This document shows, one piece after another, positions 1-3,000 of a stretch of 20,498 bases of DNA. The stretch covers positions 1 to 20,498 of the IMG/VR virus record IMGVR_UViG_2802429224_000006; one strand, given 5' to 3'. Origin of the DNA: a virus (Duplodnaviria; Heunggongvirae; Uroviricota; Caudoviricetes). The position numbers were made by a program. How positions within the stretch are numbered: the first letter of the stretch is position 1; the number at the start of each line of letters is the position of its first letter.

Positions 1-3000
1 CGACCAGCGACCAGCGACCAGCGACCAGCGACCAGCGACCAGCGACCAGCGACCAGCGACCAGCGACCAGCGACCAGCGACCAGCGACCAGCGACCAGCG
101 ACCAGCGACCAGCGACCAGTAAATCCAGAAAGACGGTAAAATCGGTTGAGCCGCAAATTTCCGATCTCGCGAACTCATGGCTTAAATCTTACGGGCTTGA
201 TTACAGGCTGGAGCAGGCACCACTTAACCGCGAGATAGATAACGCCCTGGACGCCTATTTTTCGAAAAATGGCGGTGCAGGTGGTAACCGTCCCGATGTA
301 AAACTCCTTATTCAGGACAAATACGGCAGGCAGTACCCCGTTCTCATCGAATACAAAGGCTATAAGGACAGGCTTATCCGGCTTGGCAGTAACGGTATCA
401 TCGAGAATAAAGATTCCAGAAAAGAATGGAACTTTAAAAACATTAATGGATATGCGGTTAATGGTGCAGTCCATTATGCCAACGCACTTCTCCAGTTTAC
501 CAACTACTCAGATATTATTGCGATCGGTATGACAGGCTGGTGCGATGATGATACAGGAGAGCTTCATCATGAAATTGGCGTGTGGTATGTATCAAAGAAT
601 AATTTTGGGGCTGGGCAGAAGGTTGGTGAATACACTGACTTATCGTTCCTTGCGGATAAAAATGTTGACGGATTTATCAACAAGATAAAGCTGCTTAATC
701 TGCCGCCTGAGGAGCTGGAAAAAATTAAGGCCAGCAAAGAGGAAGAGATAGACACTCGACTTTCTCGCCTGAACAACGATATTTATCAGGATGAAAAGGG
801 GCTTGGTGAAAGTGATCGTGTTTACCTTGTTGTGGCTACCGTGATTGCGACGTTGGGTATTCCTGACAAACTGGCACCCCTGGATAAAAAAGAACTTACT
901 TCATCAACGGAAGACGATTGGCGTGATGGCGATATTATTTTCAGGAAAATAAGAAACTTTTTACGACTAAAAGCTCTTCCTGAAACAAAAAGAGAAATGA
1001 TTTTGCGCACGCTGCAAAATACGCTGTTGACTGAAAACATTAACAAACCAGTCAATGGTGAAAGCCAGTTAAAGCGCGTGTTTGTTAAGGTTGTCGATGA
1101 CCTTGGGGAATACTACAAAATCGGGTTGACCACCGACTTTACGGGTAAGCTGTTTAATGAGATGTATCGCTGGCTTGGGTTTACGCAGGACAAGCTTAAT
1201 GATGTCGTCCTGACTCCACCCTACGTAGCCACATTACTGGCAAAACTTGCGCGGGTGAATAAAGATTCCTATGTATGGGATTTTGCTACCGGTTCAGCCG
1301 GATTGCTTGTGGCTGCAATGAACGAAATGCTCATTGACGCCAGAGAGAATATTCACTCACCCAACGAACTGCAACTCAAGGAGGCGAAAATCAAGGCAGA
1401 GCAGCTTCTTGGTATTGAGGTGTTACCCAGTATTTACATGCTAGCAATTCTGAACATGATCCTGATGGGGGATGGGAGCTCAAATATCCTCAATAAAGAC
1501 TCGCTGGCCGATTTTGACGGCAGATATGGCTTTGGGAGAACAGGGGAAAAATTCCCGGCCGACGCATTTATTCTCAATCCTCCGTATTCTGCTAAAGGCA
1601 ACGGCATGGTTTTCGTGCAGAAAGCTCTTTCGATGATGGATAAAGGCTATGCCGCAGTGATTATCCAGAGTTCAGCCGGGACAGGAAAAGCGACGGAGTA
1701 CAACAAAAAAATACTCAAAGAAAATACCTTACTGGCAAGCATCAAAATGCCTGCGGATCTATTTATTGGTAAATCAAGCGTTCAGACCTACATTTACGTT
1801 TTTCAGGTGAAAATTAAGCATAGCGCGAAACAGGCGGTTAAGTTCATCGATTTTTCCAATGATGGCTACATTCGCTCTAATCGCAAAAAGGCAAGAAGTA
1901 ACCTTGTTAACGCCGATCGTGCAAAAGAACGCTACCAGGAAGTGGTGGATCTGGTTCATTTCGGGGGAGGTTGCCTCAATATCCTTACGGAAGATGAATA
2001 TTTTGAAGGAACCATCGATCCTGATAGCGGTGAGGACTGGAATCAGACGAAGCCTGTGGATACCAGGCCAACACTGGATGATTTCAAAAAAACGGTGAGT
2101 GACTACCTTGCGTGGGAGGTGTCGCAATTACTGAAAAAACAAGGTGAAAACAATTCTGCGGGAAAGTAAACTCCCCGCTCAGCGATAAATTAAAAAGTGT
2201 TGAGTGGGGAGAATTCAGGATTGGCGATTTGTTCGATGTGAGCACTGGTTCGCTTATTTCCTCAGGGAGATTAAAACCTGGCAAAATTAAACGCGTTTCA
2301 GCAAAGAGCGAACAAAATGGCATCATCGGAGAATTTGATACGGAGTTTATGGATGATGCAAGGCATTATGAAAATTTCATAAGCGTTAATTTCTTTGGAG
2401 ATGCTTTTTATCATCCTTATTGTGCCAGCGTCGAAATGAAGGTACATGTTCTTACATTAAAATCAAATAAGTCTGGCTTTAACACAAAGTGCGGATTATA
2501 TATTACCAGTATGATTAATAAAACTTTAAAAGGACGCTTTAATTATGGTCAACAGTTATCTAGTTCCAAACTTAGGGATGGAGAATATTTCATAAAATTA
2601 CCGGTAAAAAATAATGCAATTGACTGGGATTTTATGGATAATTATATAGAAGAGCTGGAAGCGATCCATATAGAAGAGCTGGAAGCGTATTTAATGGTTA
2701 GCGGACTCGCGGACTCGCGGACTCGCGGACTCGCGGACTCGCGGACTCGCGGACTCGCGGACTCGCGGACTCGCGGACTGATAAGCTATGAGCTTACGCC
2801 GCAGGAATCAAATATTTTAGATAAAATTAAAAATGGCGGCGTTTCATGGGAAATGCTGCCATTTGATTATTTTTTTAGCCGCATAAAGCAAGGGAAACGG
2901 TTGAAAAAACAAGATCATATTAAAGGTGATATTCCTTTTGTTATGGCAGGTATAACGAATAATGGCGTTGCAAACTTTATATCAAATCCTCATGTGATTT

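Follow-up and report, generated by a model that had tools for sequence, protein, structure and literature searches.

A 20,498-nucleotide stretch of tailed-phage DNA (Caudoviricetes; positions 1 to 20,498 of IMG/VR record IMGVR_UViG_2802429224_000006, referred to here in its whole length as the window) begins with a heptanucleotide repeat, (CGACCAG)n, that runs into the open reading frame (ORF) of a restriction-modification (R-M) gene. Comparison with related loci indicates that this tract, located at the 5′ end of a BcgI-like (Type IIB/IIG) R-M operon carried on a prophage, is very probably a slipped-strand contingency switch. The operon consists of a gene for a fused nuclease and methyltransferase (RM) followed by a gene for a specificity subunit (S); coordinates of its features are collected in Table 1.

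Tandem Repeats Finder assigns to positions 1–119 a period of 7 with 17.0 copies of the unit CGACCAG, 100% matches, and a score of 238, in agreement with the raw sequence and with the (CGACCAG)x17 tract recognized in the initial annotation. The edge of the window cuts the tract, so that 17 units is a minimum and the phase of the window copy is not readable. Frame 1 is open for 722 codons, from base 1 to the TAA stop at 2167–2169, and the earliest ATG, GTG, or TTG of this frame in the window is ATG 529, as expected from the earlier observation that frame 1 is open and without a start between 120 and 528. All six frames of the tract are free of stops, and because 7 is coprime to 3 the peptide repeat RPATSDQ is common to all three plus-strand frames. 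It is perfect, its unit is not a multiple of three, and it lies in a translated 5′ region, as in genes that are phase-variable through simple sequence repeats. A regular-expression scan of the whole 20.5-kb window for at least 4 units of 4–9 nt returns two simple-sequence tracts only, at 1–119 and 2701–2779, both within the RM-S operon. On the minus strand of 1–119, GCTGGTCG recurs every 7 nt and agrees in 7 of 8 positions with Chi of E. coli, GCTGGTGG.

The region upstream of the tract was read from related loci. Of 5426 complete E. coli genomes searched by megablast, 30 have an ∼89%-identical locus; 24 of these were read together with one phage record, and the set used for the start region and the phase comprises 25 loci (24 Escherichia loci and the viral contig L066). 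In all 24 E. coli loci read and in the phage record the tract is directly preceded by ...AAAAGGATGAT(T/C)(T/C)TATGCTGCCAGACCAG. The 24 Escherichia loci and L066 all have a Shine-Dalgarno (SD) sequence and an ATG, 15 nt before the tract, in keeping with the initial proposal that translation starts within or upstream of the repeat. This codon, ATG2, stands in the arrangement AAGGA-N7-ATG in tract-bearing relatives. A second, ATG1, lies 8 nt upstream of ATG2 in a different frame and touches the SD sequence, and the third leader frame is closed by a TGA. The SD sequence and both ATGs are kept in every tract-bearing locus, and called full-length proteins begin at both ATGs (P0003, ‘MILCCQTSDQ(RPATSDQ)n’; P0004, P0008, and P0010, ‘MLPDQ...’). 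The viral contig L066 carries the window's own tract-to-ORF junction, CGACCAGTAAATCC (CGACCAGTAAATCCAGAAAGACGG), with 9 units, the same leader, and hok upstream.

With this arrangement, replication slippage would gain or lose 7-nt units and thereby move the enzyme between three frames. At tract lengths (L) for which L mod 3 = 2 the enzyme would be in frame with the well-spaced ATG2, the ON state; at L mod 3 = 0 the frame would be that of ATG1, a probably weak start directly adjoining the SD sequence; and at L mod 3 = 1 an early stop would leave a short peptide and no enzyme, the OFF state. The ON/OFF switching originally suggested is retained in its dependence on frame, but the two ATGs in different frames predict three states. 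Loops of 7–8 nt are poorly recognized by E. coli MutS, which would account for the unit sizes of an enteric switch.

Tract length is polymorphic between close strains, and in-frame and out-of-frame alleles are both present. Overall it ranges from about 2 to 119 units, and in complete genomes from 15 to 119 (833 bp). Comparison of 3.2 kb of flanking sequence (1200 nt before and 2000 nt after the tract) yields a first group with 0 differences and tracts of 30, ∼72, 63, 55, 82, and 57 units, and a second, also with 0 differences, with 64, ∼92, 82, and 98 units; among the members of the flank groups are three O111:H8 isolates, with 55, 82, and 57 units, and a pair of strains from a single study, with 75 and 82. 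Prophages that are identical over the 3.2 kb of flank can differ by tens of units, which contradicts an invariant repeat number, one of the two outcomes named at the outset as speaking against phase variation. Sorted by tract length mod 3, the 25 loci comprise 7 open from ATG2, 8 open from ATG1, and 10 closed. In comparisons between lineages that carry the tract (the window, three groups of E. coli, and Salmonella), the body of the RM gene has a dN/dS of 0.04–0.06 at a dS of 0.56 to >2, and in every locus its 2 kb are free of nonsense and frameshift mutations, indicating that the RM gene is not decaying. Comparison therefore supports, through upstream starts, variable length, three phases, and strong purifying selection, the earlier suggestion that copy number gates translation of the whole enzyme.

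The same length variation might be explained by a neutral hypervariable variable-number tandem repeat in a silent or decaying moron gene, in which length would be without consequence. The near-equal frequency of the three phases, the presence of the system in only 30/5426 complete E. coli genomes, the split S gene in many loci (with IS1 between RM and S in one), and the lack of a detected promoter of its own in a consensus scan are all compatible with this explanation. It is nevertheless unlikely, given the low dN/dS of RM at near-saturated synonymous sites and the intact reading frame in every locus, the conservation of the SD sequence and both ATGs in all tract-bearing loci, the perfection of most tracts (several have single-base interruptions), and the presence of two independent tracts, each placed exactly where translation is gated.

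Several points weigh against a functional switch. All of the evidence is between-genome comparison, and the counts for tracts of 400–800 bp come from assemblies and may be off by one unit, which makes single ON/OFF calls soft. The tract of L018 (strain 2015C-3121) is interrupted by an implausible run of 63 C at 2844–2906, probably an assembly artefact. Exactly 82 units are found in four records (L010, L013, L015, and L055) that stem from different studies and fall into two flank groups, a recurrence beyond what a very fast switch predicts, through either a truly stable allele or an assembly effect. The near-uniform 7/8/10 distribution of phases is equally expected from neutral drift of a non-functional tract. 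The start region lies outside the window, and ATG1 has no spacing to the SD sequence. Finally, a simple consensus scan finds no sigma-70 promoter between hok and the RM start, directly upstream of RM, the sole match being a late-promoter-like site after Q, so that expression in the lysogen is no more than presumed.

Homologues without the tract locate the N-terminus of the enzyme. RM homologues at 61–75% identity occur in Clostridia, Treponema, Campylobacter, H. pylori, Bacteroidales, Neisseria, and Providencia; the tract is absent from the non-enteric homologues (including those of Clostridia, Treponema, Campylobacter, and H. pylori) and from Providencia, where the N-terminus is ‘MAKxxQS(I/V)EPNIADLANGWLKSY’ (‘MAKxxQS(I/V)EP’). 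These proteins start 5–8 codons before the point that corresponds to the end of the tract in the window, indicating that the conserved mature N-terminus starts exactly at the window's tract end (...KSVEPQISDLANSWLKSY). Progenitor-like alleles are either tract-free, with GGAGG-N8-ATGCTGCCAAATCAGCGACCAACAAAT (MLPNQRPTNKSRK) in L062 and L063, or have about 2 units (MLPDQRPATNKSRK) in L061 and P0010. A Salmonella enterica contig begins with ‘...ACCAGCAAATTAAGAAAGG’, that is, it is broken within the tract.

The homologues also bear on whether translation might start downstream of the tract, at the TTG called by the Prokaryotic Genome Annotation Pipeline (PGAP) or at ATG 529, to give a constitutive enzyme or a nuclease-less methyltransferase with the tract as its 5′ leader. 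PGAP calls a 653-aa product from the internal TTG in most E. coli records, and ATG 529 opens a 546-aa ORF. However, a start downstream of the tract in a different frame, anticipated earlier as an observation that would speak against gating, does not appear: no start downstream of the tract is conserved among the related loci, and the E. coli TTG is CTG in the window. A start at the TTG would moreover delete ∼30 residues (SVEPxIAxLANxWLKSYxLDYK), a stretch kept from the initiator Met onward in homologues of many phyla, and PGAP itself annotates the full-length form where the tract is in frame (L059). The first start in the window, ATG 529, lies after the PD...EXK nuclease motif, has no SD sequence, and is not conserved as a start, and was rejected as the start of a nuclease-less methylase. 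A downstream start is accordingly quite improbable. Least credible of all is a functional repeat protein encoded by the tract, either a length-tunable disordered (RPATSDQ)n N-terminal arm or a minus-strand ‘YXWGXW repeat-containing protein’: all six tract frames are open and PGAP places a minus-strand coding sequence (CDS) over the tract in every E. coli record, but about two thirds of tract lengths are out of frame with ATG2, so that in-frame length tuning is not the main effect, the minus-strand ORF is bounded by the tract alone and follows it in length (216–864 nt, under the name ‘hypothetical’ or ‘YXWGXW’), and both arm and ORF are absent from homologues outside enterics.

The gene controlled by the putative switch had been described as that of an R-M methyltransferase. 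It is an R-M gene, but the Pfam and PADLOC matches indicate a fused nuclease-methyltransferase with a separate S subunit, and the segment 120–528, taken previously for the 5′ part of the methyltransferase, instead encodes an N-terminal PD-(D/E)XK module (PD...EYK, nt 292–360). The RM protein matches Pfam N6_Mtase at 6.5e-21 and, weakly, VRR_NUC; over its full length it matches the 721-position PADLOC profile REase_MTase_IIG (‘Type IIG restriction enzyme-methyltransferase’) at 7.5e-233, the second-ranked PADLOC profile being 637 positions long. Three proteins of the window that were looked up had no exact counterpart on record; the nearest matches are Escherichia proteins of 92–94% identity. 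An 89%-identical homologue of RM is annotated in a phage record as ‘BcgI alpha chain-like’. A single RM polypeptide thus combines an N-terminal PD-(D/E)XK nuclease with an N6-adenine methyltransferase, and is accompanied by a separate specificity subunit with two target-recognition domains (TRDs) and by no HsdR-type translocase, as in BcgI-like systems. A PDB sequence search gave no match. Classification as Type I, which the PGAP naming implies, was rejected: the RM protein scores 36.9 bits against the NCBIfam hsdM profile, for which the cut-off is 242.75 (all NCBIfam matches are sub-threshold), no HsdR-like gene is present at the RM-S locus, and the nuclease is fused to the methyltransferase. 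On its profile matches, motifs, separate S subunit, and lack of HsdR, the system is a BcgI-like (Type IIB/IIG) RM + S system, neither a lone methyltransferase nor Type I.

The second simple-sequence tract of the window, of octanucleotide units, lies between the two recognition domains of S. The window S is intact, with the order ...IEELEAIH IEELEAYL MVSGL (ADSRTRGL)x3 ISYEL... across this region. Among relatives with the window S type, S is intact only where the number of full octamer units is a multiple of 3, namely in L056 (6 units) and L057 (18 units). It is truncated after the first recognition domain in L018 and L058 (16 units each) and in L059 (4 units), and split in L061 (5 units) and L062 (14 units). 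In other E. coli S alleles the second domain is of another kind and the octamer tract is missing, and the second recognition domain of the window (TRD2) has no match in complete E. coli genomes. The octamer tract would therefore set translation of the second recognition domain, the outcome being two-domain specificity, one-domain specificity, or none. The spacer between the domains grows by the 24-bp unit (x2–4) and, in the octamer tract, by 8 aa per 3 units. A change in central-repeat length of HsdS reportedly distinguishes EcoR124I from EcoR124II, and S resembles these subunits in that in-frame central-spacer repeats vary in copy number; by analogy, the variable 24-bp repeat could alter the spacing within the recognition site.

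How S is translated was considered from the RM-S junction, at which S lacks a start codon of its own. The S frame opens at 2148, after an upstream stop at 2145–2147, and contains no ATG, GTG, or TTG until TTG 2229; the conserved S N-terminus (LSDKLKSVEWGEF) is encoded from about 2170, before this first canonical start. A GTG at 2144 was rejected as the start of S: its use needs a +1 correction at a C4 run that is invariant in all relatives. Across the family the S frame opens 4–6 codons before the RM stop, and the first canonical S start usually lies 7–104 codons past that stop, beyond the conserved S N-terminus. In a survey of about 50 loci from several phyla, RM ends 0–1 codons after G_GGA_AAA, G_GGA_AAG, C_CCA_AAG (H. 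pylori), or A_AAA_AAG (other E. coli, Salmonella). Such a heptamer is present in about 95% of family members, whereas among the other ends of ORFs in these loci about 3% carry one, in no case with a long −1 ORF after it; in the family it is kept even though the C-terminal peptides of RM differ (..SAGK, ..KLEKKL, ..SEKKQ, ..RLGK, ..TPPK). The RNA hairpin that follows folds in the window at −34.2 kcal/mol (z −3.58). Across the family it starts 3–6 nt past the heptamer, and it is conserved in 15 diverse homologues, with 96.4% of cells paired and four pairs showing compensatory changes, a covariation score reached in 0/500 shuffles and to be read with the caveat that both arms are also protein-coding; slid controls are 38–49% paired. 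Lineages with a different S N-terminus (those with A_AAA_AAG) have a hairpin of different sequence at the same place.

These features indicate, with moderate confidence, that the junction is a −1 frameshift cassette that would produce an RM-S fusion. Natural in-frame nuclease-methyltransferase-TRD fusions are found in three family members, and an engineered EcoKI M-S fusion is active (PMC3510504). A possible but less likely route to S is termination-reinitiation at a codon overlapping the RM stop (AUG or GUG in a few homologues, AUA or GUA in most). Consistent with this route, L054 has AAAATGA, and hence an in-frame ATG for S, the H. pylori homologue L053 has GTG at this place, and the EcoKI genes hsdM and hsdS, which share 1 nt, show translational coupling (PMC3510504). 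In most family members, however, TAG or TAA stops leave ATA or GTA at the overlap, and reinitiation accounts neither for the retention of a perfect X_XXY_YYZ heptamer next to differing RM C-termini, against the about 3% background, nor for the covarying hairpin 3–6 nt after it. By frameshift and reinitiation alike S needs ribosomes that are translating RM, so that the 5′ tract would gate the whole system, that is, restriction, methylation, and specificity jointly.

A tentative reading extends these proposals to the family as a whole. S would be made only as a −1 extension of RM, which would set the RM : RM-S ratio; in enterics the heptanucleotide tract would gate everything via two starts; and the octamer tract would toggle between two-domain and one-domain (half-site, presumably dimerizing) specificity. 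The result would be a defence and epigenetic module with two dials, reprogrammed at random, in the stx slot of lambdoid prophages, including Shiga-toxin prophages.

The enteric host envisaged in the initial annotation agrees with the relatives found, which are from E. coli, Escherichia sp., and Salmonella enterica. Downstream of RM-S the window contains a terminator-like hairpin, tRNA-Thr, tRNA-Gly, holins, an endolysin, terminase, and lambda-like head genes, the last only ∼78% identical to those of phage 21. The G+C content is 40–47% in the RM-S region and 53–57% in the head genes. The order in E. coli relatives is Q antiterminator, late-promoter-like site, hok, RM, S, tRNAs, and then nanS-p or stx, so that RM-S occupies the moron slot of Shiga-toxin genes in lambdoid prophages. 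The module lies between Q/hok and stx where stx1c (L004) or stx2b (L059) is directly downstream of RM-S, and a Mom/Com module adjoins RM-S in some O111:H8 prophages (L001). In L018, IS1A is inserted between RM and S. The two tRNA genes of the window, tRNA-Thr(TGT) and tRNA-Gly(TCC), occupy 3722–3875, between the R-M module and the lysis genes; at this site the E. coli relatives have tRNA-Ile/Arg/Arg. The Salmonella enterica homologue L065, whose contig begins 85 nt before the called gene, has neighbours typical of an integrative conjugative element (RAQPRD, DUF3262, DUF2976...) and not of a lambdoid prophage. Farther downstream in the window, a 138-bp repeat (x3.7, 78% matches) at 12804–13312 lies within a head protease/scaffold gene (11821–13437), which has PHROG family matches in four repeated stretches.

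Table 1. Features of the RM-S operon in the window. Positions are those of the window; readings of function are predictions from sequence.
Feature	Position	Strand	Remarks
(CGACCAG)x17 heptanucleotide tract	1–119	+	read as (RPATSDQ)n, after a start codon that lies outside the window and before the enzyme's conserved N-terminus
RM gene, fused PD-(D/E)XK nuclease and gamma-class N6-adenine methyltransferase, BcgI-alpha-like Type IIB/IIG	1–2169	+	frame 1; Pfam, PADLOC
Nuclease catalytic motif P98-D99...E117-Y-K119 (PD-X17-EXK)	292–360	+	kept in homologues from several phyla
Methyltransferase motifs DFATGSAG (S-adenosylmethionine binding, 1279–1302) and NPPYS (catalytic, 1576–1590)	1279–1590	+	
Candidate −1 slippery heptamer G_GGA_AAG (X_XXY_YYZ), from the last RM codons	2160–2166	+	directly before TAA; RM ends gcG GGA AAG TAA
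S (specificity) ORF, two target-recognition domains	2160–3368	+	−1 frame of RM; Pfam Methylase_S x2, PADLOC Specificity_II (‘Type II specificity subunit’)
RNA hairpin, 13–14 bp, 4 nt after the heptamer	2171–2211	+	fold and covariation
In-frame 24-bp repeat x2 (IEELEAxx), central helical spacer of S	2646–2693	+	2–4 copies in relatives (L006, L007, L056, L057)
(GCGGACTC)x9 + GCGGACT octanucleotide tract, between the S recognition domains	2701–2779	+	in frame, read as 3 x ADSRTRGL
Intrinsic-terminator-like hairpin and T run, end of the RM-S unit	3499–3530	+	after the S gene

Contingency loci made of simple repeats are seen as a hallmark of host-adapted pathogens with small genomes and as rare in E. 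coli and Salmonella. The present locus suggests that a temperate-phage moron imports such a switch into enterics, including into Stx1c and Stx2b prophages. If the switch works as proposed, lysogens would be mixed populations that differ in their barriers to phage and DNA uptake and in genome methylation. Automatic annotation conceals the locus. In E. coli RefSeq records (L001–L018, L055–L060) RM is called from the internal TTG as ‘HsdM family’, a minus-strand CDS consisting of the tract only is named ‘YXWGXW repeat-containing’ or ‘hypothetical’ (‘EmrB/QacA’ in one phage record), and S is called from a late TTG, GTG, or CTG or as split pseudogenes; the ‘YXWGXW’ protein is considered bogus. Short-read assemblies break at the tract, and the locus is consequently under-reported: one protein cluster has 841 members, mostly partial, and public gene calls include hundreds of ‘partial’ proteins at places where a short-read contig stops within the tract.

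Among known enzymes, BcgI (Type IIB) is an A2B complex (PMC3592470) and, like the system described here, pairs a nuclease and methyltransferase A chain with a separate two-domain specificity B chain; a partial frameshift at the junction could supply such a 2:1 ratio. It differs in that the best match here is another profile, the 721-position REase_MTase_IIG, and two-sided cleavage by the present enzyme is predicted at most. The BcgI-like systems of H. pylori (PMC3936762) likewise place behind an RM fusion gene an S gene that lacks a start and carries a phase-variable repeat, but this repeat is a homopolymeric G tract in S and no 5′ tract is present in RM; L053, an H. pylori homologue, shares 61% identity with the window protein, and its S gene contains a G8 run. 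Krebes et al. (PMC3936762) noted that S has no start in these systems and took this as the cause of inactivity. The conserved heptamer and hairpin suggest instead that a missing S start is the normal design. If the frameshift junction is real, it would be a new way to build an R-M enzyme and would revise the status of H. pylori systems deemed inactive without an S start codon.

Well-known −1 frameshift cassettes use A_AAA_AAG in dnaX and G_GGA_AAG in phage lambda G-T. The junction described here agrees with them in its heptamers, which are identical, in the short spacer and the hairpin beyond it, and in a predicted product that extends the upstream protein; it differs in that it would join an R-M enzyme to its specificity subunit and has the 0-frame stop directly after the heptamer. 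Neither a report of a frameshift joining an R-M enzyme to a specificity subunit nor a description of the heptanucleotide tract was found in the full-text literature, a scope that places most subscription journals and REBASE outside it. Repeat-switched R-M genes are known in Haemophilus and Neisseria and, as far as was found, a case from an enteric prophage has not been described.

For the 5′ arrangement of the tract, a precedent is H. influenzae lic1, in which (CAAT)n is combined with alternative ATGs in two frames to give strong, weak, or no expression. There, as here, the repeat tract stands just after two start codons in different frames, although gene class and repeat unit differ and use of ATG1 is here only inferred. 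In the accessible part of a survey of Type I repeats, Salmonella hsdS G-tracts are the only enteric case mentioned. The phasevarions of Haemophilus, Neisseria, Moraxella, and others, based on Type III mod or Type I hsdM and hsdS (PMC5909438, PMC7383803), share with the present locus a perfect 5′ repeat whose unit is not a multiple of 3, a length that varies between strains, and predicted frame-dependent ON/OFF expression. Unlike them, the locus described here resides in enteric hosts (Escherichia, Salmonella), in the Q-to-lysis moron slot of lambdoid prophages including Stx prophages, encodes a fused nuclease-methyltransferase instead of Mod or HsdM, and combines 7- and 8-nt units, up to 119 units (833 bp), two tracts in one operon, and two start codons.

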